Below the pieces are notes generated by a model. The model was not told the origin of the DNA, searched no databases, and saw only the letters and a list, made by a program, of their open reading frames with translations. DNA of 64,000 bases, taken from a virus. Position numbers and translations under genes: made by a program. The DNA is taken from the UHGV virus genome UHGV-0141727, one strand, 5' to 3'. This document shows positions 5,013-36,957 of the stretch, piece after piece; the first letter of the stretch is position 1; each line of letters opens with the position of its first letter.

Positions 5013-6698
5013 TTAATTATTGCTCATCACAAATTTTGCAAAGTTGATTAATTGTTCTTGCGTCCAGTTTTCCGGATCGTCACCGGACGACAACGGCGCG
5101 GATTCGTACATACCATGCTCGTTGTTTTGCTCTGATTCATTCGCCTTAAACTCTTTGATCATTACGTTGAGAGTGTCATCGTCGATACGAAGCTGTTCGG
5201 TGAACAGATAGCGCATAAACGCGTCGCTACCCGCCAGTTTCGGGTTGTTCTGGATCTGGTCCATTATTTGCGAGATGACAGCTACGAAGTTGGCGCGCGC
5301 ATCCAGCTCTCGGTTTTCCTCTTCCTGGATAGCTGTGTTCATTGAGTTGAATTGCACGTCATAAGGACGGTTTTTTTCGGTGTAAACCTTCCCGTATTTA
5401 TAAGCGAGGTGAATGTCATGAAGCCGATAAATAGTCCGCTGGGCGGCCTGTCTGATCCAGTTCGCGCGTAATGCGGCCTGGATAGCTGTTTGCTGCCAAC
5501 CGCCTTCTCCAAGCCCCCCACTCATCTGATCAGCCCAGCCAAGCATTGTTGCGTCAATGCCGAGGCTTGCCGCGAGCTGTCGGAGATGAAACATAACGTC
5601 TTCGATACCACTGATATCTGCGGGTATAGATTGCGTATCAATGGTGATCCCGTTCTTCCCATCCCCCATGACAGGTATCAGATGGTTAAGTACAGATGGG
5701 AGAGCATTAGAATTAATTGACCGTTGCGCTACGAGGTCGCTATGGCGCTTCAGTGCCTGGCTGACCCCGCGCGTATAATTCGCCGCGTTTACCGGATCTA
5801 TCGTGTTCGTTGTGAGTGCAATCAGGCGATCAATTTTTGCAGCGTTGTTTCGCGTTGCTTTCAGCGCAGCAAGCGCGGCACATAAATTCAGGTAGGGTTC
5901 ATAACTGTATTCAAGAAACGACGTACCGTAGTTCTGTGTCTCCATTAACGGCTTGTCCTGCTGTTCACTAAGCAAGGAATAGCCTGTAGTGCCGTAAGTT
6001 ACTGGCATTACTTTATGCTGAGGCGTCCAGTACGGGTTTTTCATGGAAACCAGATTCCACGGCTCGGTTATAACTCTGCGCAAAGTATGCGTGTCCAGAA
6101 TGTAATCACCGCTGAATCCGACAAGTTGGCTACCGCGATAAAACTCCTGAACGAAATGAGGGAGCGTGTAATAGCTCGACTCAATTCCAGTTATCCCCTT
6201 CCCTTGCTCTGCATATGGACGGATATACGACACACCGAAAATAGCCATGATCATGGCCCACGATGGAAGGCCATCATTAATCATTGAGCTTAAATCAGCG
6301 GTCAATTCCTCACATCGACTTACAGCCTCCTTATCCGCCCCATTTTTCGGAGCGAGAATAAATGCGAGGCCTGTTTTTTTTGATGGAGCCAGAGAATGCG
6401 CAATGTGAATGTTTAATGCTGTGGAGATAGTCGGACTTTTCGCCATCGTCTCCAGTATGTTGTATTTTTGCAGGCGGTCACTCGGTAATTCTGCCGATAT
6501 AGATACTGTATCCGCCGCGCTTGTCATTCCATCGCTATTGCTCCCCAGGATGCCTGGACGCAAGGCGGACAGGCCAGAACGAGCAACGACGCTATGCCCG
6601 CTCGCAAATACGACCGGATCGGCAGGCGTAACATCACCACCGCTGAAGGCTTTCTTCAATGCCGACAGAAAGCCCTTGTTTTTGTCTTTCGTTGCCAT
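5013..6698 (-). CDS. portal protein (P1 Prt position)
   Basis: 561 aa. Size and position upstream of the protease-like gene, with an acidic C-terminus. Call by synteny only. Confidence 0.55.
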   Translation of the reverse strand: MATKDKNKGFLSALKKAFSGGDVTPADPVVFASGHSVVARSGLSALRPGILGSNSDGMTSAADTVSISAELPSDRLQKYNILETMAKSPTISTALNIHIAHSLAPSKKTGLAFILAPKNGADKEAVSRCEELTADLSSMINDGLPSWAMIMAIFGVSYIRPYAEQGKGITGIESSYYTLPHFVQEFYRGSQLVGFSGDYILDTHTLRRVITEPWNLVSMKNPYWTPQHKVMPVTYGTTGYSLLSEQQDKPLMETQNYGTSFLEYSYEPYLNLCAALAALKATRNNAAKIDRLIALTTNTIDPVNAANYTRGVSQALKRHSDLVAQRSINSNALPSVLNHLIPVMGDGKNGITIDTQSIPADISGIEDVMFHLRQLAASLGIDATMLGWADQMSGGLGEGGWQQTAIQAALRANWIRQAAQRTIYRLHDIHLAYKYGKVYTEKNRPYDVQFNSMNTAIQEEENRELDARANFVAVISQIMDQIQNNPKLAGSDAFMRYLFTEQLRIDDDTLNVMIKEFKANESEQNNEHGMYESAPLSSGDDPENWTQEQLINFAKFVMSNN

Positions 6699-6930
6699 GA
6701 TTCACCGCAAAAGGTTTCCGATTTCGTGGCAGCTTATCCAGTGTGTGATTTCATCAGTAATTTTTCGTTGTTTTCACTATATGCTGATGTTTTTTCATAT
6801 GCGGAAATGCTTTTCCAAAAACGCAACCGCCAAACAAAGAAGTTATGTTTATAAACATTTTTGTTGTGTTTTATATCTTTTGTGTTATTATTCTTGTCGC
6901 CCATGATGGATAAATTGCATAAGGAAACTT

Positions 6931-7113
6931 GTGAAGTATTCAGAGTTCAAACGCTGGTTAATCCAGCAAGGGGCAGAGTTCAGGAAAGCGCCAGGTGGCG
7001 GCAGTCATCAGAAAGTGAACCTGAACGGAAAGCGGTCGGTTTTCCCGGACCACGGTTCAAAGGAAATGCCTGAACCGCTACGCAAGAAAATAATGAAGGA
7101 CCTGGGGCTTTAA
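6931..7113 (+). CDS. hicA: HicA mRNA interferase toxin
   Basis: 60 aa, GTG start after AAGGA. MKYSEFKRWLIQQG...GSHQK...PLRKKIMKDLGL closely parallels E. coli HicA. Confidence 0.9.
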   Translation: MKYSEFKRWLIQQGAEFRKAPGGGSHQKVNLNGKRSVFPDHGSKEMPEPLRKKIMKDLGL

Positions 7114-7143: not shown

Positions 7144-7575
7144 ATGTTTAACTATCCGGTAAAACTGGAGCGCGACGACAATACCGGCGCGTATGTCGTA
7201 TCATGCCGCGACCTACCATTGTTTAATTCCGTGGGTGACTCAGTTGAAGAAGCGTTGCTTGAGGCTGGTTATGGATTGGTCGCAGCGGTTGCGATTGAGA
7301 TTGAAGAACGCCGACCTGTTCCCACTGGTAGCGAGCCAAAAGAAGGTGAGTACGTTGTCTCTTTGCCAGTGCTACCAGCAATGAAGGCTGCACTCCACAA
7401 CGCGATGATAGAAACCGGCACACGCAAAGCAGAGTTGGCGCGCAAACTCGGAAAAAATGGAACACAGATTGATCGGCTTCTCGACGTCGAACATTCATCG
7501 AAAGTTGAAACTGTCGAGTTGGCACTGCATCAACTGAATAAAAATATCGCCGTATCTGTCACACCAATGCGGTGA
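7144..7575 (+). CDS. hicB: HicB antitoxin
   Basis: 143 aa. N-terminal YPVKLERDDNTGAYVVSCRDLP (HicB fold) plus a C-terminal HTH (TRKAELARKLGKNGTQIDRLL). Confidence 0.9.
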   Translation: MFNYPVKLERDDNTGAYVVSCRDLPLFNSVGDSVEEALLEAGYGLVAAVAIEIEERRPVPTGSEPKEGEYVVSLPVLPAMKAALHNAMIETGTRKAELARKLGKNGTQIDRLLDVEHSSKVETVELALHQLNKNIAVSVTPMR

Positions 7576-7687: not shown

Positions 7688-9073
7688 TCAGGTTTCCAGC
7701 CCAAAATCGCTTTGTTCTGTTTTGGCTTCGAACATCGTGAAGTTAAGCCCTTTCCCCTCTCCATGTTCCAGTTCAATCTCATTAGAAACAGCGGTCAAAA
7801 TACTACGTAGATCGACATCTCCACCGCCGAACATATCGCCCAACGCCTGCTGTTTATGAATCAGTTCGTCGTTGATTTTTTGTGCCATTTTTTTGAATGC
7901 AGCCCCCATGCGCTTCGCGCTTCGATTATTTGCCACGATGAATAGCGCCAACGCCTCAGCTTCCGGCGTGCTATCACCGAAGAGTCCGCGCTGGGCTATC
8001 ACCTCTTCCACTGCCTGACCGTTGTCTTTGGCTTCACGAACAAGGTTAATCGCGTCCTGGAGTGCTGCTATAGCCTGTTTATCCAGACCGTTCACCTGCT
8101 CTATACCATCAACCAGACCAGTTACAGCATCATGATGTGCATCGCCAGAAATCGACTGCATTTGCGCAAAGTCACTGGCTGCTGTATTAAGCGCGGTCAG
8201 GATATTGCGCATTTCCGGATCCGGTTCTTCCGCCACAAGCCGAACAAGTCGCTCATCCTTATAGGCTTTGGCAAAAATCGCATTCTGAATGCGATCGATA
8301 AGCTGTTTCGTTGGACGTCCATCGGCTGTAAGCAAACCTGCCGTCGCGGTATCGCCTATTTCGTGCAAAAACGCACGAATAAACGCATCATTGGACCGCG
8401 CCAGTAGATTGCCATCATCTGAAGGATTAAATAGCGCCATGACGCTCTCAGTGAGAAATTGCGCATCCGCATACGCTTTCTCACTTGCAGCCATCTCTTG
8501 CAGATCGCTGATGTTTGAGTCGCGTGCAAATTGAGCACGATCAACGTCAGTGAGGCGCTCGCGAACCAGTACAGGCATCACCATTGCCCTGACGTCTTCG
8601 GGATTAAGGCCAAACTCTTTAGCGTGATCGATAAGATATTGTCGGTAATCTTCAGCCTGCCCTTGTTCATAAGCACGCCAGATTCCCATGCTTCGACCAT
8701 TACCAGACTCAACGACATTATCCGGACCAACAATCGGGGAACCATGACTACTCATACCCGAATCAGTGAGTTGTGCCGGGCGTAAATTGGCGGCGATACG
8801 GTTAACCTGGAGCTTACTTGACAGTCGGGTGCGATCGCGAGGCTGGAGTTCCTCCGGAAATGACGGATTTATACTTCCGTCCAGGTTGTTAGAAATGATG
8901 AGCTTTTTGGCATCAATAACCTTGAACGCTGTTTTAACTTCGTCGCCTTTGCTGGTGACGACATAGCTGCTACGCCCCAACTTCGTCTCTTGCTTTTCAA
9001 GAGATGACACCACAGCGATAACCCCCTCAATGTTCGCTGCGGCTAGAAGTGCTGATGTTACGTTTTGAGTCAC
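7688..9073 (-). CDS. DdrB-like protein with ParB/Srx-like domain (Dar antirestriction operon position)
   Basis: 461 aa. N-terminal region with the ELQPRDR motif of the ParB-like (DdrB-type) family. Last gene of the lydA..ddrB-like operon. Confidence 0.45.
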   Translation of the reverse strand: MTQNVTSALLAAANIEGVIAVVSSLEKQETKLGRSSYVVTSKGDEVKTAFKVIDAKKLIISNNLDGSINPSFPEELQPRDRTRLSSKLQVNRIAANLRPAQLTDSGMSSHGSPIVGPDNVVESGNGRSMGIWRAYEQGQAEDYRQYLIDHAKEFGLNPEDVRAMVMPVLVRERLTDVDRAQFARDSNISDLQEMAASEKAYADAQFLTESVMALFNPSDDGNLLARSNDAFIRAFLHEIGDTATAGLLTADGRPTKQLIDRIQNAIFAKAYKDERLVRLVAEEPDPEMRNILTALNTAASDFAQMQSISGDAHHDAVTGLVDGIEQVNGLDKQAIAALQDAINLVREAKDNGQAVEEVIAQRGLFGDSTPEAEALALFIVANNRSAKRMGAAFKKMAQKINDELIHKQQALGDMFGGGDVDLRSILTAVSNEIELEHGEGKGLNFTMFEAKTEQSDFGLET

Positions 9074-9164
9074 AATTAACCACCTTTCTGTAAAAAAGGC
9101 AGTGTAAAAAGTGTGTTATTTCGCTGACTATTTTAAGAAGAAAGGGGCATTCTGCCCCTCTCTT

Positions 9165-9536
9165 TTACGCTGCATACCCGTTAGCTGAAACCCAGTTTAC
9201 GGTCTGTTCTTTGGCCTGGTCGAGTGTCAAAAATTCACCAATATATTGAGATATGCCTCTCAAAGCATCGATGAACTCCATTTGTGATGATTTAGTAAAT
9301 GCACCACTAAGGAAGTCAACAACAATTTTAGGCGTTTCTTGTGCCGCCGGTTGCACTTCCTCTTCTTGCTGTTGCGCTGGATTATTCGATGAACCAAGCC
9401 CCAGCTTCATCATCACTTCAACTATCCGCACGCCAATAGTGACACGTTGTACCGCAGTCGCGCTTTTTTGCGCTGACATCAGCTCAGACAGTTCTTTGCC
9501 TAAGCTAAGGCGCTCCGTTACTGATATTTTCACCAC
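9165..9536 (-). CDS. DdrA-like small protein (by synteny)
   Basis: 123 aa, between the DarA-like and DdrB-like genes. No motif recognised. Confidence 0.3.
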   Translation of the reverse strand: MVKISVTERLSLGKELSELMSAQKSATAVQRVTIGVRIVEVMMKLGLGSSNNPAQQQEEEVQPAAQETPKIVVDFLSGAFTKSSQMEFIDALRGISQYIGEFLTLDQAKEQTVNWVSANGYAA

Positions 9537-11482
9537 ACGCCCCCTTGTTGTATCTCTGCCAAAATGTTGATCAGGTGATCGGCTGCCGCACCAACAAGTG
9601 ACTCGTTCTCATCATATCGACCTGCGTTGATAAGAACATTAGCTGCCTCCTGAATGCGATCAAACTCCGCTCTAATCACCGTCAAATCACGGGACGTAAA
9701 CTGCAACGGCACGGATTTCAGATATTCCAGCGCACTGTCCGCCTCCTGATCAGCCTCACTAACGACTGGCCCATCTGAACCTGTATCAGACTCTTGGGGG
9801 GATTCAGGTTCAGACTCAGGTACTGGTACTGGTACTGCTTCCGGTGCCTGATCTAATGTCTGTTCAGCTTCGACTACTTCTGATTGATTCTGAAGCGCGT
9901 CATAGATATCCATTATAAAAAGGTTCTCCCCATCTCCAAGTGGATAAGCGACGTTAGGAAATGCTTTGCGGAAGAGGATTTTTATCTGCGCCTTAAAGGT
10001 TTTCAAGTCGCTTCCAAACAGATCAACATAGCCATCAATATGGTTCGACATACTGGACGCAACCAATTCGCCTGCAATCTCTTTCAATTCATCGTCACCA
10101 GGGAGATATAGCAACTCGTACTGACTGACTTCTTCGTCTGTCAGTTTGCGGTCATACGTAATGATTCCGTGACGAGCATATTCGTAATACGGATCAGCCT
10201 GATCAGGACGGTCAAGTACAGCTTTATTTCCTTCAGGAACCGCACCAACACCCGCCGGGCGAGATTGGAGCGCATAGCGATATTTACCAACCTCCAGGGG
10301 ATCAGGATGTGATTCTGGTTGTGGCTCCTGTTCAGGCTGCGGCTGATCAGTTGGCTCAGGCTGGCCCGGCAACACATCCACTTTGTATTGATCAGCATTA
10401 TGTTCACGATAGGCTTTAAGTAATTTGGTTGCAGCGTCCGCTGAACTCCCACCTTTAACAGCACTGACATCAATACTGAAATTGCCTTCTGGTGCCTCAA
10501 TCGTGACAAAGCTATCACTGCCTGACGTGACATACTTAACTACAGCACCATTATCCAGCGTTGTTTGGCCTTCTGTAGCAAGATTATGTTTTATGTGTCG
10601 CAGTTGATCATTGAAGGCACGCTCTTTAGTTCCTTGGCTCTTAGCTGACAATAAATTATCGCGTTTAGCCTGCAATTCCGCGTTAAGGGCTTTTTGTGCG
10701 TCTAATTTATTCTGCATATCATTGAGTGTTGAGCGTTTCTCTGCCAGCCCCCGCTGTGCGTCTTCAACCTGCTCAATCAGCACAGAACGTTCTTCTGCCA
10801 GCTTGTCGGCTTCATTGAGATACCCCTCAATATCAGCCTTCATTTTGTCTTGGCGCTCCTTTGCTTTTTTGAATTTTGCACTATTACGCTCAATGAGGTT
10901 AGAAAGCGCCTGGCATACCTGGCTCAGAGATACATCACGCCCACCGATTGGCGCAACAACATGCGTAACGTTTCTTTTGTTAAGAAGAAACTGAAACGCA
11001 ACCAGCTCGTCATCCCCTTTAATTCTTGTGCCGTCTGCGGTTGGAGAATGGAAAATTATGCTTGTCGTTTGCCCATCGGTTAGAGGTATTTGTGCTGTTA
11101 CAACAGGGATATTAGCAACCCGGCGCACGCGCCCAATGATTGCCCCACCGATACTATTACGTCCGTCTTCATATTCACCTGCCTCATCCGTACCCGCAGC
11201 AATGTCAGTGCCATTCAGGCCGCGATTAAGCGCCCGGACAAATGCTCGCATTGTTTGCGCTAACCGCAATTTTGTTGTGGTTATAGCTTCGAACATTGCC
11301 TCATTGGTAGTTACCAAAATTTCGTTGCCCATATAGGCCAGCTCGATATCTTCCAGCGTCGCAGGCTCGATAAGTAAATCATCCTCGGTGATATCTTCCG
11401 CCACCCAACGATTAGGCGTATATCCAGTGAGCGTATCTGCAAAAGTGGACTGGATATTTATTCGAATAGGTTTCTTTATCAT
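9530..11482 (-). CDS. DarA-like internal head / antirestriction protein (by size and synteny)
   Basis: 650 aa. Central coiled coil, Pro/Glu/Gln-rich linker (PGQPEPTDQPQPEQEPQPESHPDP). Same operon position as P1 darA. Confidence 0.4.
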   Translation of the reverse strand: MIKKPIRINIQSTFADTLTGYTPNRWVAEDITEDDLLIEPATLEDIELAYMGNEILVTTNEAMFEAITTTKLRLAQTMRAFVRALNRGLNGTDIAAGTDEAGEYEDGRNSIGGAIIGRVRRVANIPVVTAQIPLTDGQTTSIIFHSPTADGTRIKGDDELVAFQFLLNKRNVTHVVAPIGGRDVSLSQVCQALSNLIERNSAKFKKAKERQDKMKADIEGYLNEADKLAEERSVLIEQVEDAQRGLAEKRSTLNDMQNKLDAQKALNAELQAKRDNLLSAKSQGTKERAFNDQLRHIKHNLATEGQTTLDNGAVVKYVTSGSDSFVTIEAPEGNFSIDVSAVKGGSSADAATKLLKAYREHNADQYKVDVLPGQPEPTDQPQPEQEPQPESHPDPLEVGKYRYALQSRPAGVGAVPEGNKAVLDRPDQADPYYEYARHGIITYDRKLTDEEVSQYELLYLPGDDELKEIAGELVASSMSNHIDGYVDLFGSDLKTFKAQIKILFRKAFPNVAYPLGDGENLFIMDIYDALQNQSEVVEAEQTLDQAPEAVPVPVPESEPESPQESDTGSDGPVVSEADQEADSALEYLKSVPLQFTSRDLTVIRAEFDRIQEAANVLINAGRYDENESLVGAAADHLINILAEIQQGGVW

Positions 11483-12096
11483 GCATCTTCCTCCAGGCGC
11501 GCTATTTCTTCTTTCAATACGCGAGTTTTCGCCAGTTCCTGCGCCATCTCGGTTCTAATGATTTCAGTTTCTCTTGTTGCGCGGTCTGAATTACCTTGCA
11601 CCTGATTTAATTTTTCTTTGGCCCTTTCAATATCCTCGCGGATCGCATCGCGAGATTCCTTTGCCTCTGCTAGTTTCTGCGCATTGGACTTAACGCCTTT
11701 TATTTTCTTATTCCCATCATCAATATCTTTCGCCGCACGAGCTAACTTACGCGCCAATGATTTCTGAAATGATGATGCGCCTTTATTAAATAAAGCAGCC
11801 AGTGATTGCCCTAAAGCCGTCAGCGTTTTAACAGGCTTGAAAGGAACAATTTTTCCGTTCAGTTTTACACCAGAAATATCACCAGTATCATTAACCTGAA
11901 CGTCCATCGTCTGCTCATCGATTCCGATAAGGGTAAACGTGCGCGTCATGATCCCGTCTTTCTTCCTGCCATTACTGGCGGGGATCACCCTCGCTATCTT
12001 GTAGCCTCCTTTACCGATTTCTTTGACGAGTTTTGCCAGCCCCTTTTCGTTTAACTCATCATAATTAAGAAGAACATAATTAGACTTATTTGACAT
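11479..12096 (-). CDS. Hdf-like protein (by synteny)
   Basis: ORF 11479..12120. AAGGAG SD favours ATG 12096. Lys-rich with a C-terminal coiled coil. Confidence 0.35.
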   Translation of the reverse strand: MSNKSNYVLLNYDELNEKGLAKLVKEIGKGGYKIARVIPASNGRKKDGIMTRTFTLIGIDEQTMDVQVNDTGDISGVKLNGKIVPFKPVKTLTALGQSLAALFNKGASSFQKSLARKLARAAKDIDDGNKKIKGVKSNAQKLAEAKESRDAIREDIERAKEKLNQVQGNSDRATRETEIIRTEMAQELAKTRVLKEEIARLEEDA

Positions 12097-12532
12097 TCCA
12101 GTCTCCTTCACACTTTTCAATCATAAACTGGCGTTCTATGCAGTCATTGATAGGGAAAATGCGATAAAGCGGATTCAGGCGGCAATTACCGTTAGTCAAT
12201 GTGACCTTTAGATCCCACTTCGCTGGCTCAAGATATTTCGTGTCGATGAGCAAATATTCTTCTCTCTCACCGCGTTTTGATGCGTCAACTGGTCTTGTTT
12301 TCCCCGAAATAACCACAGATGGATTTTTCAAGTCCTGCAACCAATATTCGATTTGTGCATTGCTTACCCAGCTTCGCTTAACGCGAAGCGACACAGGAAA
12401 CGCTATAGCAGACTCTTTCACTACAGCTTCGCCAATGCTCAAAATATCAACACTCTTGCGACGAAATAAGAAACGGTCAATAACGGCAACAAATGCCATG
12501 ATAAAAATGAAATAATTTCCAAAGTCACCCAT
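12086..12532 (-). CDS. LydB-like protein (putative holin regulator), N-terminal TM segment
   Basis: 148 aa with hydrophobic N-terminus FGNYFIFIMAFVAVI, directly after the holin-like gene. Confidence 0.35.
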   Translation of the reverse strand: MGDFGNYFIFIMAFVAVIDRFLFRRKSVDILSIGEAVVKESAIAFPVSLRVKRSWVSNAQIEYWLQDLKNPSVVISGKTRPVDASKRGEREEYLLIDTKYLEPAKWDLKVTLTNGNCRLNPLYRIFPINDCIERQFMIEKCEGDWNVK

Positions 12533-12858
12533 TACTTCTCTCCACCTTTTCCCCCACTCGCTATTACGCTTAAGAGATTCAAGACGTTACTAGCTCTGGA
12601 CTTCAAGCCCTGTAAAATTTCACTTCCGTTGTTACTGGCAATCAGAACAACGCAGTAAATGATGCCTTCCGGCCATTCATAGCTATCAGCCACCCAAAAT
12701 CCCGCAAGCCCAGCAGTTACCGCAGTAAACAATTCACTCGCGAGGTTGAGCAGTGACGCAGAAATGCGCCCGTCTCTAACTCCGAGAAGGAATACGCCGG
12801 TTCCACTCAGCAGGGATGTTATGACTGCTACAGCCAGATTTTCATAATCTGCAAACAT
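12532..12858 (-). CDS. holin-like membrane protein (LydA position)
   Basis: 108 aa with three hydrophobic segments and a charged C-terminus (GGKGGEK). First gene of the operon. Confidence 0.5.
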   Translation of the reverse strand: MFADYENLAVAVITSLLSGTGVFLLGVRDGRISASLLNLASELFTAVTAGLAGFWVADSYEWPEGIIYCVVLIASNNGSEILQGLKSRASNVLNLLSVIASGGKGGEK

Positions 12859-13171
12859 ACCCCTCCAGAAATGACGTTTAACGCGGCTTCAACTTATCCA
12901 GTTTGTTATTTCCCGACTAAATGCCATTCACACAAAATGGATGCATATGATGGCCCGGTGGTCCGTAAACCTCGTCACTCAGAGCGTGGAGGATGCCAAA
13001 TTCGCGTATCAACAAAATGGTCCAAACACGGCTTTAAAGAGAAATACGCTTGAATGCGCAAGATGTGAGCTGATTCTTGAGGACAAAATGATGACATGTG
13101 AGTCTTCACAAGCGTCATTCAGTGAATATAATACCGACTCTCTCAGATACTACTAACTGGGTGTTCATTAT

Positions 13172-13207
13172 GCCCGCCGTCATTGACTAGACGGCGGGCT
13201 TTTTTTG
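13172..13207 (+). terminator. strong plus-strand rho-independent terminator
   Basis: GCCCGCCGUC-AUUGACUA-GACGGCGGGC followed by U7. Confidence 0.8.
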
Positions 13208-13322
13208 TGCCGAAGGATAGCGTTGCTCAAAAAAAACACAAAACCGCACGCTAATGAAGCCCTCAACAAAAGAGGGCTTGAAATATCAAAAAAAATAGTG
13301 CTGATTGGATTGTTATGATTGT

Positions 13323-13745
13323 TTATGCAGGCATCTCAGGCCATGAGATATCTGCATCAACAGAAGTGTCAACTCTATTAAGAAGAACTCTATACCTCTT
13401 TAACTTTGTCAACATTTCTATTTCCTCATCAGTGGCAATATCCATATCAACAGCATCCTGAAGCGTTGATATTTTTATGCTCACATCATTCATAAGACTA
13501 CTTTTGGTGTTTTCAGCAATGCTGACTCTCTCCTCTAAGCTCATAGGTTGTGGGTCAGATAACATTGGATAACCATCGCCATTTGCAATTATTATTTTCC
13601 CATTGCCATACCCTGATAACAGTTCATCATATAAGTCATCAGGTATATGTACAGCATCGGACGGCCATGAACCGTTTTTATCGTAATCTTCTTTTAGTCT
13701 ATCGTCGTAGAAACCACCAGTCTCTTTGCTGTAATACTTTGCCAT
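13323..13745 (-). CDS. tail fibre assembly protein (P1 U-like)
   Basis: 140 aa. N-terminal YYSKETGGFYDD... typical of Tfa/gpU-type chaperones, directly downstream of the tail fibre gene. Confidence 0.75.
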   Translation of the reverse strand: MAKYYSKETGGFYDDRLKEDYDKNGSWPSDAVHIPDDLYDELLSGYGNGKIIIANGDGYPMLSDPQPMSLEERVSIAENTKSSLMNDVSIKISTLQDAVDMDIATDEEIEMLTKLKRYRVLLNRVDTSVDADISWPEMPA

Positions 13746-20270: not shown

Positions 20271-23200
20271 TTAATCCTCCAGTAATTTGTCAAGAGATGG
20301 GTCATTGATAGTCGTGCTGGCACGCTGACGAGGTTGTGGTTGTGATGTGTTCACAACTTTGTCCTGATCGCCTTTGCGGTTGTCTTTGCTTACGCCAAGA
20401 ATCTCTTTGAGAACGGAATAAACGTTCTCCAGTGCTTTCAACATAGCCGGATCGTTATTTGCGGTATCTGTTGTTAGCATCTGCCTTATTCCGCTTCGAG
20501 CGAGGTCCGTGACGGTTGGTAGCTGAGGAGGCATTGCAAGGAACGGTTCTTTAGCAGCCACGCCCGAAGCAAACAGGCTTTGATTGATTGCGCCAGTCGT
20601 GTCCCTGATCGTATCCGCCGTTTTCTGTATGCCACCATTCAGCCAGCCGCCAACACTTCTTGTTAACGGACTAATAGCGCGAGCAACATCGGTATTCTGT
20701 CCAGAGGACTGCAATACAAAGTCATTTAACATTCCGGTGCTATCGATACCGCCAACAAGTCGCGAGAGGTTATCTCCAACGGCGGGGAGGACGGCGGAGC
20801 CTACCTGTTTAAGCCCTGACACCGTTGAATCAAATAGCGAGCCAAAGAAGCCCCTGTCCTCACCTTCAACCACCTTGTAGCCGTTGTCGTAAATCTGCAC
20901 ACCCGCCGGTGTCGATGTGGCACGCTTCCCGCTGATGGTTGCCGGACTCTCCGGAAGCAGGTCAATGGTTTCTGTATCGCGGTTAACGTTGCGCTTTTGC
21001 TGTATAGCCGTAGTGATATCGGCGATCTGTTCCGCCTTCTGGAAACTAAAGTTTTTGCCCGTTGCTCTGGATATTTTTTCAACAAGGAACTTATCCAATT
21101 GCTTGGCTTTTGCTGCTAACGAGGACATCTCTTCCGGAGAACTGACAGGGCCGAGATTTAGCCCCATATTGGGATCTCCCCCAACTATCCCGGCGATGAC
21201 GCCCCCAACACCGTCTGCACTCATTAACCGATCCGTCAATCCGGCTGCGGCGGAAGAGTTGCCACTAGCTTTCGCGTGGCTGATCGCCTGGGCATTTTCC
21301 TGTTGAGCCGCCTTCGGTTTTTTAGCTGCCTGTGCGTGTTGAACCACATCAGTAGGGGTAGGCATTACAGCCTGGGCTACGCTTGACGCAGGAATAGCAG
21401 AAGATGAGCCATTGGCGTATTTGACTTTGCTACCGACACTATATTGGGAGTTGCGAGCGATTAGAGGACCGCCCTTTTCCTTCTGGATTTTATTAATGTG
21501 TTCCAGCGTTTCATCATTGAATTGCCCTTCCCAACGCCCAGTTTTAGCGTTGAATGAACCAAGAGCTGTTTTGATGAAATTGTTGTTAACCGCCGGGTTC
21601 CCCCCCTCCTTCGTCGCAATAGCGCGAACAAGGTGCGTCATAACTTCAGGGTTACTAACGTCTATTTTATCGTTGGGGGATACCCCTAGATATTTGCTGA
21701 CGTTTTCAATGTACTGATTGGTGTTGTTCTCTGTTGGTGGTGCCCATTTTGAAATGATGCTGGATACTGTTTGCAGCTTCTGATACCCGGCGGCAGCACT
21801 TGTACCGTTGTAATAACTCGATACCTGGTTTGCCAATGCCCGAATCCCTTCTTCGGGCGTATTAAACCGCGCAAAACGCTGTTCGCCTTTCGCGTTCGGC
21901 GCTTCCAGTACCGCCCCCTCCTGATTTGCAAAAACCAGGTTCCCCAGGTTGTTATTCCGGTAATTCCTGTTCTTGGCGTTGCTTCCGCCTATATTCAGAT
22001 CAGCCGTTATTGTATTTTTTTCAGGCGCTTTAAATTCGTCTGGCGATTTGTAGCCGTGTTCACCCACGCCATCCTCACCTCTGCGCCCGCCCTGTAGCTG
22101 TCGGGCCAGATCATTAATTGCGGCTACCGTTTGCTTGGTGCCATCTTCAACGGCTTTCTTAACCTGCGCAGTGCCTTCGCTGCTTGATGAGAACGATTCT
22201 TTTAGGCTGCTGAATGCGTTCTTCGACGCGTCGATAGAACTATTTATGCCGCGAGCGATATTGCTGGTATCAAGACTCTGAAGTTTTTGTCCGACACCTT
22301 CAAAGCCTAGCGCGGACATCCCCTCGCCAATGAGGTTAGCCGCTCCCGTCACCAGACCGCCCATATCCAGGACGTTAGCAGCGGCGTAGGCGCTCTTTTG
22401 CTGTGTTGTAACGTCCTGCCCTTCCTTCAGGTTATAAGTCGCCCTCTGCGCTTCTGTGTCGCTGTAGCCGTCTACGGCATCATAACCAACCATAGCCACC
22501 TGGCCGATGACTGGAATCGCCCTGAATCCGGCCCTTGCGGCAACACCTCCGGCAGCTTTGAGAGCCACTTTTCCAGCTTCTTTTTTCGCGATGTTTTCAC
22601 CAGTGGCAACGGCAACCTTACCCGCCTCTTTCCTGGTAAGGCTTTCCCCAGCGGAAGTTGCCGCTTTACCAGCGTCTTTCCCTGCCGCTCCACCAGCCGC
22701 CGTTTTGGCTACGCTTTCTTCAGTGACCTTACCTGCTCTGGTTTTAACTGAAGATTTATCACCCGATGATTTTGGTGAGGTACTACCCTCGTTCCCACCA
22801 GCATTTTTTGTCCGATTTTTTTCCTCGCCCGCACTGTTGTTTTTGCCTGGCTGATTTTTTTTCCCCTCTTTGCCTTCCTGACTCCTGCCCGTCTCAGTAG
22901 GTTTGCTGGTGTTTTTTCCCTTCTTGCCCTTGTTTTCTTTACTGTCTCCAGTGCGGCCCGTGTTGCCACCACGTGCACTGCTACGACCGCGTGTAGGGGA
23001 TATTTTGGAACGTAATCTGCCACCGCCGAGGAGGTCGCTCAGTTTTAGCCCACTCTCCTGCGACTTTCGTAGTTTCCGGATCTCTTCGGATACAGTTTCC
23101 AGCTCATCAATTATCTGGCTGTCGTTGCGTTGAAGAACTTTCGTTTGTTCTTCGATCGCACGTACAGATTTTTCTTTAACGGCTTCAGTAAATGCCTTTG

Positions 23201-30087: not shown

Positions 30088-31743
30088 TCAACGCATCAGG
30101 ATTGGTTTGCCGAGGATTCGACGAGCAGTGCCTGTTGGACACACGGACCATTCCACTTCCCACAAGTCGATGTCTTTTTGAGTTACCTTGACCACATAAG
30201 GGTCAGAACCTTGAGATTCATCGCGTGGTGTAACCAGCGCACCAGCCGCATAAAAACGGTCCAGAAGATCTGTCAGTGCGTTAGTCAGACTTTCCTGCGT
30301 TACGCCATCAGGTTCATGCTTGATTGCCTGAGCAACTTCATAGAAATTGCGGGCAATTGCATTCATCAGTGATGAAACGTGCTGGAATCGCAGATAGTTA
30401 TTTTTGCTGTATGTCGTCAGGGAGTCGTCGATGTAGACAGAACCATCCGCTGCAACGCTTACTGGGTTAATACGAGCGGTCACATACGCTTCACGATCGA
30501 TTGTGCCAATCCCGGAGAGTCTGGTGATGTTCTGGCGATCAATGATTGCGCGAGACAGACCAGCCGGGGCGTAATGCCAGCCGCCTACATCAGACACAAG
30601 CGCAACGCCTTTAGCTTTTGCCACAAATGCGTCGCAACTGATTCCGTAAACCACATTCATACCGCTGAAAGTGTCACGGCATGAGTACGGGAAGTGATAA
30701 CGTGCAGCCTGGTGGGATTTGCCGAAACCATGTGATTTAGCTTCCGCGATAGCGTTATCACCAGTCTGAGCACATTTCAGGTCGTAGAACATATCCACGC
30801 GAACGTCTTCTGCCAGCGAATTAATTTTTGCCAGCACGGATGCGTCGTAGCAGCCCATAGAAAGCAGCGCGGTATAATTAACTTCTGACGCTTCGAGAAC
30901 CTCTAACGCTTTCAGATAATCATCAGTGTCAATTGAGGACAGATCGCCATCTGTACCGCCTTCAAACGCTACATCTTCGAAAGTCAGCAAGTGAGCGGAG
31001 TCTTCGGCACCATCAGCCAGTACAGCTCCAAGCCTGGTGGACTGACTTTCTAACAACGCAGGAATCCATGCTGGCTGGCCCATATCGTTCGTTGCATCCG
31101 GATCGAAAGAAACCTGGTAGCTTTCCAGCGTTTCTACAGAACCATCGGTCTGTGTCTCTTTCAGTTCCAGAGTGAACAGGTCATTTTCTTCGTCCTCACG
31201 GGTCAGTGATAACGTGCGGTTTGTCGAAGCATCACCGTCCTTTATGTAGAAAATAGCCAGTTCACTGCCGGAAATTTCAGGTGTTTCGCTTGCAGCGAAA
31301 GTTACCGGAGAAGTGGCTCCAGAAACGGCACGAACGGTCAGTGTATCGCCGATATTTACCGTTGCTTCGGTCGGAGCAATTTGCAGAGTTTTTGCTGACT
31401 TGGTGCTTTTCGACCTGGCCTGAACAGAAACGGCAATGCCCGGTACTTTCATGTCTTTTGCGCATACGCGAACCACATAACCGGTGCCGCCTTTTACTGC
31501 GCGTTCAACGTGGCGATATGGTTCAAATGCGGCCCCGGTGCGCGGGTGAAGAGGTGAACCTAACACGCTCTGATAGTTGGCTGCTGTAACCTGCAAAACC
31601 TTGCCTGGTGCCCCTCTGCGGGAAATAACCAACCCGGCAAAGACGGAAGCACCGCCAGATGTGTTGGACAGGGTAGCATCGGCATTTACGTCCGCTACCG
31701 CAACGCCCGCCGCCTGACCAACAGAAAAACCAATTTTATTCAT
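30088..31743 (-). CDS. tail sheath protein (P1 gp22 position)
   Basis: 551 aa. Size and position between the capsid and tube-like genes. Preceded by an SD (AAAGAGGAAAAG). Confidence 0.55.
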   Translation of the reverse strand: MNKIGFSVGQAAGVAVADVNADATLSNTSGGASVFAGLVISRRGAPGKVLQVTAANYQSVLGSPLHPRTGAAFEPYRHVERAVKGGTGYVVRVCAKDMKVPGIAVSVQARSKSTKSAKTLQIAPTEATVNIGDTLTVRAVSGATSPVTFAASETPEISGSELAIFYIKDGDASTNRTLSLTREDEENDLFTLELKETQTDGSVETLESYQVSFDPDATNDMGQPAWIPALLESQSTRLGAVLADGAEDSAHLLTFEDVAFEGGTDGDLSSIDTDDYLKALEVLEASEVNYTALLSMGCYDASVLAKINSLAEDVRVDMFYDLKCAQTGDNAIAEAKSHGFGKSHQAARYHFPYSCRDTFSGMNVVYGISCDAFVAKAKGVALVSDVGGWHYAPAGLSRAIIDRQNITRLSGIGTIDREAYVTARINPVSVAADGSVYIDDSLTTYSKNNYLRFQHVSSLMNAIARNFYEVAQAIKHEPDGVTQESLTNALTDLLDRFYAAGALVTPRDESQGSDPYVVKVTQKDIDLWEVEWSVCPTGTARRILGKPILMR

Positions 31744-31808
31744 GCTGCTCTTTTCCTCTTTATCGAGCGGATTAGAGAAGTCTCCCCATTTGCATGGGGA
31801 GACTTTTA

Positions 31809-32087
31809 TCAGGCTTCGCCGACCGTGAAGCTGTCACCTACCGTCACTTCTTTGGTTGACGGTTCAACGCTGACGGCGCTTACGCTCTTTGGGGCTTCAT
31901 TAACCGTTACGGTGCATGTTGCCGTTTTATTGCCATCGGTGGTTTTGATAGTGAGCACTGCCTGACCTGCTTTAAGTGCGGTACAGGTTTTGCCATCTAC
32001 GCTCACAATTTCCGGATGATCTGACTCGATAGTGAAAGATTTATCTGTCGCATCGGAAGGTGTAATAGTTACCTGAATATCAGCCAT
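31809..32087 (-). CDS. Ig-like (Big_2) domain protein, possible capsid decoration
   Basis: ORF 31809..32099; GGAGG SD favours MADIQ at 32087. VTITPSDATDK...VSVDGKTCTALKAGQAVLTIKTTDGNKTATCTVTV is Big_2-like but lacks the first strands. Confidence 0.6.
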   Translation of the reverse strand: MADIQVTITPSDATDKSFTIESDHPEIVSVDGKTCTALKAGQAVLTIKTTDGNKTATCTVTVNEAPKSVSAVSVEPSTKEVTVGDSFTVGEA

Positions 32088-32124
32088 TTTTTCCTCCATA
32101 TAGCCCCTTATTCAGGGGCTGGTC

Positions 32125-32238
32125 TTACTTCTTTTTGGGTGTTTTTCGTGTCTTTGAAGTGCTCGCGGCGATAGTTTCACCTTCGTTTACTTCAATTGCC
32201 GTTGGTGAAACTGACACGTTCGCCACTGCTACTTTTTT
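32125..32238 (-). other. candidate -1 programmed frameshift site plus 35-codon extension at the capsid gene end
   Basis: mRNA reads GA-A_AAA_AAG-UAG, with the heptamer at 32238-32232 directly before the stop. The -1 frame is open to 32125 and encodes VAVANVSVSPTAIEVNEGETIAAS..., which resembles Big_2 N-terminal strands. Confidence 0.35.
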
Positions 32239-33926
32239 TCGTTGATTTGCCCGCTCAACATGTCAATCGCACCTTCTTTCGAACGTGTCAGGCGAAGGCG
32301 AGTGAAATAGTTCTCACCGTTGCGCGGATGCACATCGTTGATTGCTTTGCCCCAAAAAGTGGTGCGGTTCACTAGGGCTGGATTTGTTTCGTGGACATAC
32401 GGAATAGCAGGCACAGCATCACCTGCGACCAGGCCTGCTTTACCAATGCCTTCGCCACGACCATAGAAATAGATGTCGTCCAGGCCGAAGTCGTAGCCAT
32501 ATTTCTGGAATTGTTTGCAGATAGGCTTCGGCACTTCGTAGATACGAATGGAACCAAACAGGGTGCCGATGTATTGAATGTACGGCGACTGTACATAGCC
32601 CGGTGCCAACTGGAAGTGCTGCGGCGGTAAGGAACGCAGGAAGTTAGCAGCATCGCCACCAGCAAAGCCACCACGGATACCGGTGGTCAGGGTGCGGTCA
32701 GCCATCTCCTGTGACAGCGCGTTCACAACATGGCGAATTAAACCAACCCACGACTCGTAGTTCTGCGCTTCTGGCAGTGCCACATCAAATTCACGACCGT
32801 AAACGGTGTGGAATACCAGAGTGCGCAGGCGCATCATATCGATTTCGTGGGAAATCCAGTTGCGCATTGCAGAGAATTGCAATGCTGCCAGTTCGAGTCC
32901 GTGTTCACGGCTCAGGTCAGATGCAGCCATAACCGTATGTTCGGATGCGATCACGTACTCCGACGGGCGCAGGGCGTAATTGCGCATGGACTGGTTAATG
33001 ACTGGTATCAGGTTCGGATTGCGTTCAATGTTGATTTCAACCTGAACAGCGATTTCAGTGCCTTCTGCTGGTGCTTCATTAAAGGTGATATCGATAACGC
33101 CGGTATCGTATCGAACCTTTGCCGTCACAGAGAAAGAGTTGCCGTTGACGTCTTTGTCGTTGAAATACAGGTTGCCGTCACCATCATCTACTTTGGACGG
33201 TTTGCGGTTAATCAGCAGTTTGTTGTAGCCCTGGCGCAGCGGGCAGGCCTGGCCTTCGAAGTTCTGGATATCAAACTGGAAGGTGGTTTTTCTGCCATCG
33301 CCTTTTTCGGTCAGGATGTACAGGCGTTTCATCTGCGAATACACGCCAGCAGACTGCATGTTCAGTTCATCGCCCTGCTCGAATGTACCGAATTTTGTAC
33401 CAGCAACGTTGGTCAGCTCGTAAATATTGGTTTCATCACGATCACAAGGGATAAACGTACATGCGTCGCTGGTGGCTGCGCCGAGAGAAGCAGGCAGGAT
33501 CAGTGCGGCATATTGTGCAACCTTCATTACACCATCGGAGGTGCGCATGTCCTTGGCTACTGATTCAAACATGGCTTTGCCAGCGCCTTCATGCGTCTCT
33601 TTAGCGGACTCCATCATCAGGCGCTCAAGTGCCACATGGGCGTTGGCTAATACATCGCTTGCCGGATAATGCCCATACTGGCGTTTGTATTCATGAATAG
33701 ACATGGCCCAGCTACCAATGATCTGGCGAGCTGCTTCTGGTTCAACGCCTTCAAACATAGGCTCTTTCTGGATAGCTTTTTCCAGGTTAGCCATCATCAC
33801 TTCGTTGTCGGCAATCATGTTACCGGCAGCATCAGTGGTTGGATCGACGGTCATAGCCATGACGCTTGCCGCCCGATTCATAATCTCGCGCTCGCGCTTA
33901 CGAGCTGGCTCAATGTTCTTGTTCAC
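32229..33926 (-). CDS. major capsid protein (P1 gp23 position)
   Basis: 565 aa, GTG start. Size and placement next to the sheath gene as in P1 (22, 23). Confidence 0.6.
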   Translation of the reverse strand: MNKNIEPARKREREIMNRAASVMAMTVDPTTDAAGNMIADNEVMMANLEKAIQKEPMFEGVEPEAARQIIGSWAMSIHEYKRQYGHYPASDVLANAHVALERLMMESAKETHEGAGKAMFESVAKDMRTSDGVMKVAQYAALILPASLGAATSDACTFIPCDRDETNIYELTNVAGTKFGTFEQGDELNMQSAGVYSQMKRLYILTEKGDGRKTTFQFDIQNFEGQACPLRQGYNKLLINRKPSKVDDGDGNLYFNDKDVNGNSFSVTAKVRYDTGVIDITFNEAPAEGTEIAVQVEINIERNPNLIPVINQSMRNYALRPSEYVIASEHTVMAASDLSREHGLELAALQFSAMRNWISHEIDMMRLRTLVFHTVYGREFDVALPEAQNYESWVGLIRHVVNALSQEMADRTLTTGIRGGFAGGDAANFLRSLPPQHFQLAPGYVQSPYIQYIGTLFGSIRIYEVPKPICKQFQKYGYDFGLDDIYFYGRGEGIGKAGLVAGDAVPAIPYVHETNPALVNRTTFWGKAINDVHPRNGENYFTRLRLTRSKEGAIDMLSGQINEKK

Positions 33927-34004
33927 GGTTAAACCCTAAATTCGGGCGCGGCGTGAAGATTCTTTTGACGAGGTGACAATACTCACTTTGTTATTTAGTC
34001 AATA

Positions 34005-34070
34005 GCATTAGAAAAATAATTTTCGTTAACAATCTTGTGTTAGTATGGTTTAATCTTAATTTTCTAACAT
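34005..34070. promoter_or_regulatory. double operator region between capsid gene and plus-strand operon
   Basis: GCATTAGAAAAAT at 34005-34017, plus the palindrome GTGTTAGTATGG-N10-ATTTTCTAACAT at 34037-34070. Confidence 0.55.
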
Positions 34071-34084
34071 AAAACATTAGAACA

Positions 34085-34477
34085 ATGGCGTACAAGATCT
34101 TCGTTTCATACAAAAATGGTGCTAAAAGCCATTCTCTGAACACAAGCAGCAGATGCCTTGTAGAAGCTCAACTGTCATCAATCCTTACTGAAAGAGACAT
34201 TCTTTCCTTGGCTGAACGAATCGTGATTCTCCATTCAGGTAAGGCTATTCTTAATGTTCCTGCGCTTACCCCGCCTTCTGACGTTTTGGCATCTGTTAAG
34301 TGGCCTCAAATCGGCACACCTGTAAGAGTGGAAGATCCTGTAACCACCACTCTTTATATGCCGAAGTCAGTAAGGGATTGGCTTGCTGCGGTTGGTAATG
34401 GGAAGGTCAGCGCGGGGCTTCGGAAGTTAGTGGAAATGGCTGATATTCCGGAGCTGAAAAATGCATGGAGACAGTGA
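34085..34477 (+). CDS. small protein with C-terminal ribbon-helix-helix-like segment (candidate regulator)
   Basis: 130 aa. TTLYMPKSVRDWLAAVGNGKVSAGLRKLVEMA has a strand-helix-helix pattern. No SD, and the ATG is close to the predicted transcription start. Confidence 0.35.
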   Translation: MAYKIFVSYKNGAKSHSLNTSSRCLVEAQLSSILTERDILSLAERIVILHSGKAILNVPALTPPSDVLASVKWPQIGTPVRVEDPVTTTLYMPKSVRDWLAAVGNGKVSAGLRKLVEMADIPELKNAWRQ

Positions 34478-34947
34478 GCAGAGGACACATGAGTCACGCG
34501 AACCCATCGAAAACACAATATCGTTTAATGCTGGCTATCGCGTCAGCTATACCAACCAGCCTGAATCCACCCGCTGGCTATCCCGCTATTGTTGATGATT
34601 GTTTTCAGTATTACGGAGAAGACATCCTGAGCCAGTCCAAAGCGCTCAAGCAGTTATGTAAGGCAGGTATTCTTCACTGTATCGGAGATCCGGACGATTT
34701 TGTTGTTATGCTGGCGGATCGTGACTCTTTTCTGCTGTCATGGAAAGCCGGGGCGCGCGAAGCGCGTTTGGGCAATGGTATTGGCTACATCGACTATAGC
34801 GATTGTCCGCTGGCATTTGCTGGTGGATATATGCATTGGCATGAGCGAAATAGAGGCCGTCAGCGCCAGTATCGCTTGAGTGACTTTAACGTCTGTCACG
34901 GTTTCGAAGAAGCTGACAGCCAGGACATCTGGCTTCAGGAGCCTTAA
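34465..34947 (+). CDS. hypothetical protein
   Basis: 160-aa ORF. AGAGGA SD favours the internal ATG at 34489. Possible wHTH-like SKALKQLCKAGILHCIG. Confidence 0.45.
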   Translation: METVSRGHMSHANPSKTQYRLMLAIASAIPTSLNPPAGYPAIVDDCFQYYGEDILSQSKALKQLCKAGILHCIGDPDDFVVMLADRDSFLLSWKAGAREARLGNGIGYIDYSDCPLAFAGGYMHWHERNRGRQRQYRLSDFNVCHGFEEADSQDIWLQEP

Positions 34948-35267
34948 CCCCCCTTCCCTTCCCAAATCTCCCTATTCCTTTGGTTATTCAGTACGTTTCG
35001 TTGGTTGCATTCATCGATAGTGCTGAATAACTGTTCAGTGTATGCCGGATACTTGTTTAACAGCACAGGCGTGTCCTCTGGCACTATGCAAGGGGTATAA
35101 TCAATCAGATTTCCCTGCGGTTTGCTGGTGGCTTCTACGGTAATTTGCATTGGCACGCTGATTGATTTCTTTTGCCCGTTCCCGCTGCATCCTGATAACG
35201 TCATCAGGCACACGCACATCATTAACCCCAGCATTGCGTAAAGCAGTTTCAAGACGAGTAATTTCAT
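34944..35267 (-). CDS. o-spanin (outer-membrane lipoprotein, Rz1-like)
   Basis: Signal peptide with lipobox LSGC. Starts inside the i-spanin gene in another frame and extends beyond it (overlapped architecture). Confidence 0.7.
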   Translation of the reverse strand: MKLLVLKLLYAMLGLMMCVCLMTLSGCSGNGQKKSISVPMQITVEATSKPQGNLIDYTPCIVPEDTPVLLNKYPAYTEQLFSTIDECNQRNVLNNQRNREIWEGKGG

Positions 35268-35559
35268 TCTGGCTTTCCTCCCGTTGTTTGATCAGGCTGG
35301 TATTCAGTTCTGCTGTTTTGCGCTGGTACTCCTTCTCCAGTGTTTTAATTCTTTCGTTTTCAGCCATCATGGCAGATCGCGATTTTTCACTTAACTGCAA
35401 TGCGGTAGAAAGCGTGTTGTTCTCGCTTTCAAGTTGTGATTTTGAGTCTTCCAGGGAACGGATATACCTGATGTGATCGATAACTGCCGCCGTAGTACGG
35501 TAAATTCCATAAATGGCTAAAAGCGCAACTACTATCAAAATTATCTTTTTCAAAACCAT
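35101..35559 (-). CDS. i-spanin (Rz-like)
   Basis: 152 aa. N-terminal TM KKIILIVVALLAIYGIY, then a coiled-coil periplasmic domain. Confidence 0.7.
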   Translation of the reverse strand: MVLKKIILIVVALLAIYGIYRTTAAVIDHIRYIRSLEDSKSQLESENNTLSTALQLSEKSRSAMMAENERIKTLEKEYQRKTAELNTSLIKQREESQNEITRLETALRNAGVNDVRVPDDVIRMQRERAKEINQRANANYRRSHQQTAGKSD

Positions 35560-35629
35560 CCTCTTCAGATTTTTTGTTGGTGTGATATGTGTACCAATTT
35601 GTAACCATTTATGGGCTTAAATGGTGTGG

Positions 35630-36424: not shown

Positions 36425-36708
36425 TATGACACCTGAAAAATTGCCTCACCATTAGCGATGACTGAGCCACAAGAAAGGGGATCTCCCACACAAACAACTC
36501 CTTTCCCGCCTATTACAAACCATGAGCGCGTCGATACGGCTGATCCGGGGTGCGCGCTATTTCCGTCTGTATGGCTGGGGAACGCTCCCCCATCTACAAC
36601 CACTGGCTTTCCATTTACGGTAAACCAGGAAACTGTTTCTGCTACAGGTCGCGGAGGGAATCCTCCATGACCAGAACAAACTGTGTCACTGGTCGCAATT
36701 GCACTCAT
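36424..36708 (-). CDS. PAAR-like spike-tip protein
   Basis: 94 aa. CSGHGGFPPR..., HTDGNSAHPG and GDPLSCGS resemble PAAR repeat motifs. Strong AGGAGG SD. Confidence 0.7.
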   Translation of the reverse strand: MSAIATSDTVCSGHGGFPPRPVAETVSWFTVNGKPVVVDGGAFPSHTDGNSAHPGSAVSTRSWFVIGGKGVVCVGDPLSCGSVIANGEAIFQVS

Positions 36709-36788
36709 CTAACACCTCCTTTTTCTTAAATCTTCTCCACTTTGTGATTTTCACTCTTCAGATTTCTTACTTCTCATATTTGTCTCTG

Positions 36789-36953: not shown

Positions 36954-36957
36954 CAAT

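Follow-up and report, generated by a model that had tools for sequence, protein, structure and literature searches.

What do the six genes at positions 7688-12858 of the virus genome UHGV-0141727 encode, and why is the last of them under half as long as its counterpart in phage P1? The stretch of DNA analysed here (the window) is 64,000 nucleotides long, with position 1 as its first letter. The locus is very probably a lysis and antirestriction operon of the phage D6 type, carried by an Escherichia phage-plasmid, and its homology to P1 lies far beyond chance. Comparison across the family indicates that its 461 amino acid (aa) DdrB is a complete core module rather than a truncation remnant. The long P1 DdrB appears from the same comparison to be a lineage-specific elaboration, the core of ~450 aa being the conserved form.

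The lydA-ddrB operon

The six genes, in the direction of transcription, are as follows.

Positions 12532-12858, minus strand: lydA, predicted holin, 108 aa; 41% identity to P1 LydA (E = 4e-25), phrog_1527 holin (E = 1e-38).
Positions 12086-12532, minus strand: lydB, predicted holin antagonist, 148 aa; Pfam LydB (E = 1.5e-24), 34% identity to P1 LydB (E = 2e-30), phrog_1898 (E = 4e-68).
Positions 11479-12096, minus strand: hdf, 205 aa from the ATG at 12096; Pfam DarA_N (E = 4e-18), 40% identity to P1 Hdf (E = 6e-31), phrog_1620 Hdf-like antirestriction (E = 3e-72).
Positions 9530-11482, minus strand: darA, predicted internal head protein and Dar scaffold, 650 aa; Pfam DarA_N (E = 8e-40) and DarA_C (E = 4e-19).
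Positions 9165-9536, minus strand: ddrA, 122-123 aa; 35% identity to P1 DdrA (E = 1e-25), phrog_1855 DdrA-like anti-restriction protein (E = 6e-44).
Positions 7688-9073, minus strand: ddrB, short core-only form, 461 aa; GTG start with an AAAGG ribosome-binding site.

Comparison of the open reading frame (ORF) map with the P1 and D6 annotation bears out the original prediction that these minus-strand genes follow the P1 order lydA-lydB-hdf-darA-ddrA-ddrB. The P1 products measure 109, 147, 203, 639, 121 and 995 aa, and the first five are similar in size here, as predicted. All six products have P1 homologues by BLASTP, with E values from 1e-25 to 0. This includes the two on which the assignment had been made to depend: the 650 aa protein is 40% identical to P1 DarA across 626 residues (E = 3e-144), and residues 4-450 of the 461 aa protein are 64% identical to residues 2-442 of the 995 in P1 DdrB (E = 0). 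A PHROGs family is found for each of the six; the DarA-like family is labelled ‘released from the phage upon host infection’, while the DdrB match spans 10-447 of a profile with 995 positions. Pfam matches above gathering scores are obtained for LydB, Hdf (DarA_N), DarA (DarA_N and DarA_C) and DdrB (ddrB-ParB). LydA reaches 20.5 bits against Phage_holin_3_3, under the gathering score, and DdrA has no Pfam family. The RefSeq/PGAP name in relatives of the window is ‘antirestriction phage head protein DarA’.

Adjacent genes abut or overlap by 1-11 nt, the start of lydB overlapping the stop of lydA, except at a 91-nt gap between ddrA and ddrB. The hdf ORF also opens at a TTG at 12120 (11479-12120), which would give 213 aa; the ATG start, with a gene of 618 nt, is the one annotated for hdf in relatives.

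The operon is already known, being annotated in D6 and common on Escherichia plasmids. In D6 (NC_050154.1 / MF356679.1), orf25-orf30 have the same order and orientation, at ~80% nucleotide identity over the operon and 65-94% identity between the proteins; LydA is 94% identical, and the ddrA-ddrB gap is similar in the two (91-94 nt). D6 DdrB (orf25, ‘similar to P1 ddrB’) has 454 aa and is 90% identical to the 461 aa protein of the window, with different last residues after ...MFE. The genes that follow ddrB also differ: a DUF4145 gene and a hypothetical one in D6, hicA/hicB in the window. Divergence within the D6 group is faster for DdrA (65% identity), DarA (78%), Pro (79%) and Hdf (80%) than for LydA, LydB, the portal and RepL (~94%). 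The P1 darA operon contains the same six genes in the same order, the first five of near-equal size, but is flanked by lydC and cin upstream and by hxr/isaB/IS1 downstream. Five of its proteins are only 34-41% identical to those of the window, whereas the DdrB core reaches 64%.

By analogy with the P1 orthologues, LydA would serve as the holin and LydB as its antagonist. In P1, Hdf and DarA are loaded first, followed by DdrA, DdrB, DarB and Ulx (PMC12810830), and Dar protection acts in cis on packaged DNA (PMC12707154). A similar course is predicted here. The operon would be expressed late; Hdf and DarA would be built into the inner capsid surface and provide a scaffold for loading the other Dar proteins; and DdrA, DdrB, DarB and Ulx would be packaged in the head and ejected with the DNA, where they would shield the entering genome in cis against type I restriction.

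The short DdrB

Two features of the protein are mapped as follows.

Positions 8555-8950, minus strand: ddrB-ParB domain (ParB/Srx superfamily), DdrB residues 42-173; Pfam PF18763.
Positions 7724-7735, minus strand: MFEA, DdrB residues 447-450, conserved core end at the family-wide (L/M)F-E-S boundary; candidate prohead-protease site.

As the original prediction stated, DdrB is shorter than its P1 counterpart (461 versus 995 aa) and keeps an N-terminal ParB/Srx-like domain, the quoted ELQPRDR falling at residues 75-81. The domain scores 137.8 bits against PF18763 (cut-off 27.6, residues 42-173), and L76-Q-P-R-D-R81 and E122-S-G-N-G-R127 are invariant among 33 homologues. An AlphaFold2 model (mean pLDDT 78.9) begins with two helices, followed by an alpha/beta domain (~35-175) and then a long helical region; ~275 conserved helical residues come after the ParB domain. 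The model and the invariant motifs agree with the published ParB/Srx superfamily assignment, and the ParB/Srx fold and its conserved active-site arginine are present. Foldseek gave no match with the model, and neither the helical C-terminal part of DdrB nor Pro nor the portal belongs to a Pfam family. The core can be read as four parts: a two-helix N-terminal motif, a probable nucleotide-binding domain of the ParB/Srx type with QPR and GxGR intact, a helical region, and an (L/M)F-E-(S/A) end.

What the earlier reading did not anticipate is that this length is ordinary. The view of a remodelled protein gives way to that of a form standard in D6 (454 aa) and in many P1-like phage-plasmid lineages. 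Homologues of 437-481 aa with PF18763 only occur on 80-121-kb contigs of Pantoea, Leclercia, Vibrio, Photobacterium and other lineages, and two further P1-like lineages have ddrB genes of 441 and 443 aa positioned after ddrA. Alignment of the 33 homologues yields one core, ending at a conserved ...GDMFGGG...(L/M)F-E-S. Of 120 cluster representatives, at least 15 terminate precisely at ...(L/M)F, and in 20 no more than 30 residues follow the motif. The window protein ends ...FTMFE-AKTEQSDFGLET (C-terminal peptide ...MFEAKTEQSDFGLET) and falls into this short-tail class.

Longer forms of DdrB add unrelated modules right after FES: PF18823 in Vibrio and a metallopeptidase (MPTase) part in P1. P1 DdrB runs 553 residues (443-995) beyond the end of its similarity to the window protein, and this extension contains WHELGHH, a HELGH metallopeptidase motif, and has been described as a zincin-like metallopeptidase (Iyer et al. 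2017, PMC5512222). The polyvalent P1 type is characterised by this HExxH extension of ~550 aa; the window protein stops 12 residues past the core, and a tblastn search of the 64-kb window with P1 DdrB 443-995 found nothing (best E = 0.1). Because the short form is standard in D6 and many P1-like lineages, the P1 extension is taken to be lineage-specific: beyond the core end, P1 would have added its 553 aa metallopeptidase-containing extension, and Vibrio relatives an InPase domain.

The Vibrio and Photobacterium proteins (ddrB-ParB plus PF18823) show where the boundary lies. Their core is 44-60% identical to the window protein across more than 88% of the query and stops at the same ...MFES boundary, but continues into an extension of ~168 to 290 residues, including PF18823, which the window protein lacks. 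This extension is related to a C-terminal domain of a solved phage portal, 9b41. That entry was the sole match in a family-profile sequence search of the PDB and was rejected for the window protein, since it arises through the InPase-like extension of the Vibrio members. The DdrB-like ParB proteins described by Iyer et al. 2017 (PMC5512222) share with the window protein an N-terminal ddrB-ParB domain, the active-site arginine and a late or virion gene setting. The ‘solo’ form that they mention fits it, whereas their polyvalent proteins carry a fused effector (MPTase, InPase, lysozyme or methylase) that it does not have.

The core is also the most conserved part of the locus relative to P1: its 64% identity exceeds that of the portal (5013-6698; 48%) and of the major capsid protein (32229-33926; 44%), as well as that of the other five operon products. 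For this reason it is probably under constraint, and its role is probably enzymatic.

Candidate signals in DdrB and its exchange among plasmids

If the core is the complete protein, how might it enter the capsid? A possible signal lies at its N-terminus.

Positions 9005-9073, minus strand: N-terminal two-helix motif, DdrB residues 1-23; profile similarity to DarB N-termini, candidate capsid-targeting sequence.

Gonzales et al. 2022 (PMC9024508) directed a reporter to P1 capsids with no more than DarB residues 1-30, and their BLAST searches gave no consensus among Dar N-termini. The N-termini compared here are MTQNVTSALLAAANIEGVIAVV (window) and MSLSDQVVMATSIETLIELL (P1) for DdrB, and MDKIIDSISQATSIGALIEIV (D6-like) and MNKLSMGVFRCSSVSEILKYI (P1) for DarB; in the relatives L011 and L003 the DarB N-termini read downwards from 10353 and 10237. 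BLASTP detects no similarity between the DdrB and DarB N-termini, which profiles alone reveal. When a 22-column hidden Markov model (HMM) of the DdrB N-terminus is searched against 1632 six-frame ORFs (172,000 residues), the best match is DarB residues 2-21, at 9.0 bits, equal to the window's own DdrB. Alignment of the two N-terminal profiles by hhalign scores 25.2 (E = 6e-5) with 25 columns in register; 200 column shuffles average 8.6 with a maximum of 16.4, none reaching the observed score. Of 41 sliding 60-residue windows of DdrB, only residues 1-60 score against DarB-N (22.2, the rest at most 15.1). In the reciprocal HMM search, the P1 DdrB N-terminus ranks first among non-DarB ORFs, weakly, at 4.7 bits. 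These results suggest the hypothesis that DdrB and DarB have a common capsid-targeting signal, and that DdrB would enter the capsid by means of this motif. A combined N-terminal HMM matched none of the N-termini of DdrA, Ulx, Hdf and DarA, and a signal common to all Dar proteins is therefore not claimed.

The boundary motif suggests a second signal, which recurs in two other head proteins.

Positions 11285-11296, minus strand: MFEA, DarA residues 63-66, aligned to P1 DarA LLE68-A69; candidate prohead-protease site.
Positions about 33561-33572: AMFE↓SVAKDM of the capsid protein (the arrow marks the cut, here and below); resembles the mapped P1 capsid site.

The cleavage site of the P1 capsid protein has been mapped by experiment to AMLE120↓S121VAAEM (PMC9024508). 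Residues 1-69 of P1 DarA are missing from the virion structure, ~9 kDa being removed by Pro (PMC12810830), and AMFE↓AITT of the window DarA aligns with LLE68↓A69 at this point, making its MFEA a candidate Pro site. The end of the DdrB core reads TMFE↓AKTE in the window and GLFE↓SVSG in P1. Among genuine window proteins, [LM]FE[SA] is confined to the capsid protein, DarA and DdrB; two more instances fall in antisense ORFs, and P1 Pro contains the motif twice. It is plausible that Pro cuts DdrB at MFE↓A and so trims its short C-terminal tail.

The region around ddrB is variable, and two further features are involved.

Positions 6931-7113 and 7144-7575, plus strand: hicA/hicB toxin-antitoxin pair; HicA_toxin (E = 1e-9) and HicB-like_2 (E = 5e-13).
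Positions 9143-9159, between ddrA and ddrB: GC-rich hairpin AGGGGCAGAATGCCCCT, then TTCTTCTT on the minus strand; terminator-like site.

Among seven plasmids with darA at least 97.8% identical to that of the window, the ddrB region varies. NZ_CP104667 and NZ_LR890273 have the window layout prt-hicA-hicB-ddrB-ddrA; in the window, hicA/hicB separates ddrB from the portal gene and is encoded on the other strand. NZ_CP085065 (L007) has a D6-type ddrB allele (83% identical) beside prt, and a TnpB-hicAB-helix-turn-helix (HTH)-DUF3944 group between that ddrB and ddrA. NZ_CP056699 (L004) has no ddrB and carries instead a DUF3944 protein (PADLOC JukA, E = 3e-71) and an HTH regulator. The replacement interval is 7763-9137 of the window versus 20534-21893 of NZ_CP056699.1: homology to ddrB-less sister plasmids breaks at 7763, so that a ~75-nt stub of the ddrB 3’ end is kept, and resumes at ~9138. 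The hairpin, which may act as an attenuator or terminator, lies at the right-hand junction of the recombined ddrB cassette. Two other P1-like lineages carry, directly behind the short ddrB, a gene (L009 7517-8281, L010 7385-8701) that is toxin-deaminase-like, on weak Pfam evidence, or AbiC-like (Pfam putAbiC; PADLOC AbiC, E = 4.5e-6). Because its contents vary among sister plasmids, other lineages and D6, the ddrA-prt interval is seen on these alignments to be a hot spot for accessory cargo in which ddrB itself can be lost. By the same comparison, the predicted anti-defence gene ddrB is exchanged in sister plasmids for a candidate JukA-like defence module.

These leads can be joined in a single reading, which is tentative and, as a whole, somewhat more apt to fail than to hold. 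DdrB and DarB would share a targeting signal of ~22 residues; Pro would cut at (L/M)(F/L)-E↓(S/A) as in the capsid protein and DarA; polyvalent DdrB would be cut in the head into a universal core and a lineage-specific effector, the D6-type protein corresponding to the mature core, that is, to the would-be N-terminal processing product of P1 DdrB; and ddrB would be a swappable anti-defence cassette that is exchanged for a JukA-like module. Several points count against the two motif leads. A processed form of P1 DdrB of ~76 kDa, cited by Iyer et al. (PMC5512222), does not fit a single cut at P1 residue 441, which would give ~48 and 60 kDa. In P1 virion proteomics, peptides cover 59.5% of the 995 DdrB residues, more than the core accounts for; some of the P1 extension must therefore be present in virions too. 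The DdrB/DarB similarity covers few residues, and single HMMs score it low (9 and 4.7 bits). Two further points weigh against the main reading of the operon as a Dar set: ddrB is dispensable for plasmid carriage, having been lost from sister plasmids with 99% identical darA, and tblastn finds no DarB or Ulx within the 64-kb window.

Might the short gene nevertheless be a decayed copy of a P1-type 995 aa ddrB that has lost its 3’ half and is non-functional or only partly functional? Its length of under half that of P1, the recombination and insertion hot spot just downstream (hicAB here; TnpB, JukA-like and AbiC-like genes elsewhere) and the complete loss of ddrB from some sister plasmids could be read in that way. 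Such decay is nonetheless very unlikely. No trace of the P1 C-terminal half remains anywhere in the window, the ORF stops 12 residues past the family-wide boundary motif, and the same boundary is the natural C-terminus or a junction to unrelated domains in many independent lineages. The length is kept at 437-481 aa on many complete-size contigs, and a core that is 64% identical to P1, above the portal and capsid, implies purifying selection. A complete core module accordingly remains the preferred description of the protein.

Its function raises a separate question, whether DdrB takes part in antirestriction or is a ParB-like nuclease or NTPase with another role early in infection (host DNA damage, nucleotide sensing or depletion, superinfection exclusion) that is merely co-located with the dar genes. 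Iyer et al. favour sensing or degradation of nucleoside triphosphates early in infection by DdrB-ParB (PMC5512222). P1 ddrB is described as non-essential (PMC10695390) and the sole role stated for it is indirect, aiding the entry of DarB into the capsid; the hairpin and the 91-nt gap from ddrA, and the behaviour of the gene as a swappable cassette, also set it apart. On the other hand, its position after ddrA is kept in P1, D6 and distant P1-like lineages, its N-terminal motif is common with DarB, and it matches no PADLOC defence family (nor do HicA and HicB). P1 DdrB is moreover a virion head protein whose packaging needs DarA and Hdf (PMC9024508, PMC12810830). Mere co-location is therefore judged unlikely, though less so than decay. 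A partition or segregation role, as a ParB/KorB-type CTPase clamp of the plasmid prophage, can be set aside almost entirely. The best structural matches are to KorB, pNOB8-type ParB-N and PadC, and the invariant QPR and GxGR motifs recall ParB boxes. However, DdrB has no ParBc or HTH Pfam match even at E up to 10 and no partition-ParB dimerisation domain; the ParB domain is followed by an unrelated helical module rather than by the canonical ParB/KorB/Noc clamp layout. The gene also sits in a late lysis and head operon, is absent from stably maintained sister plasmids and has a virion protein as its P1 orthologue, while the closest complete plasmid has a separate ParM-type partition system. 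A packaged component of the Dar set is thus retained as the most probable role of the short DdrB.

The surrounding phage-plasmid

The window is a D6-like, P1-related Escherichia phage-plasmid. The operon region has ~80% DNA identity to Escherichia phage D6, and the first 25 kb of the window ~96% identity to 92-94-kb plasmids of E. marmotae and E. coli. In PLSDB, 657 plasmids match at some level. The region is matched in 100 of 5426 complete E. coli genomes, every time on a plasmid, and nine complete E. coli genomes match at 99% or more with identical layout, all plasmid-borne. The ddrB of NZ_CP104667.1 has 99.9% nucleotide identity to that of the window.

The relatives also supply the Dar proteins that the window lacks, Ulx and DarB, the latter a methylase/helicase of ~2250 aa. 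NZ_CP056699.1 encodes homologues of DarB (2278 aa, 43% identity to P1) and Ulx (144 aa, 46%) in genes that start 22 bp past the sequence matching window position 1; the DarB/Ulx-like genes span 30965-38272 in this plasmid (L004) and 3046-10353 in L011. NZ_CP104667.1, in which ddrB is the same, likewise carries DarB-like and Ulx-like genes. On the strength of these homologues, the source element very likely holds the full six-protein Dar set. In P1, darB and ulx adjoin prt, whereas in D6-like relatives they lie past the ant/repL region.

Upstream of lydA lies a candidate promoter.

Positions 12890-12902, minus strand: candidate late-promoter element ACTGGATAAGTTG, ~31 nt upstream of lydA.

Across the window, the 13-mer ACTGGATAAGYTG is found without mismatch at two sites only, 12890-12902 (lydA) and 6730-6742 (portal gene), both on the minus strand and both upstream of the gene. 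D6 has related sequences at both places, and in P1 the corresponding sites are occupied by the Lpa-type late promoters LPdar and LPpro. The motif shows no exact match to, and no convincing alignment with, the -22/-10 geometry of P1. It is probably a late-promoter element of the D6 group.

In D6, a cin invertase gene stands beside lydA. At 12859-13322, the stretch that separates lydA from the tail-fibre assembly gene (13323-13745), the window has no cin, in contrast to D6, P1 and the E. marmotae plasmid; the cin-less layout recurs in NZ_CP104667 and NZ_LR890273. This gap contains a 71 aa plus-strand ORF (12941-13156) with no Pfam match, a near-consensus sigma-70-like site (13105-13132; 11/12 matches) and a strong plus-strand terminator (13172-13199). 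At the left end of the window are a carboxypeptidase-regulatory-like ORF (91-624) and a CHAP-domain ORF (776-1267). Rfam matches above gathering scores lie on the minus strand at 2475-2560, 2628-2680, 52497-52584, 52629-52707 and 46082-46267, and comprise two C4 antisense RNAs, one c4 a1b1 target, isrK and sroH. That C4 occurs twice suggests a pair of P1 immI-type immunity regions.

As a known operon of a common Escherichia and Salmonella phage-plasmid family, the locus by itself matters little, and the two motif leads and the cassette replacement are modest additions. It does correct the perspective on DdrB: the textbook P1 protein is an unusual extended form, and any conserved function of DdrB should be sought in the ~450 aa core, its conserved part. 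If the tentative reading holds, the N-terminal motif and the Pro motif would constitute simple rules for the loading and release of proteins in P1-like capsids, of relevance to P1 as a delivery vehicle, a use already in development, and the short DdrB may then show the general logic by which injected cargo is loaded and released in P1-like phages.

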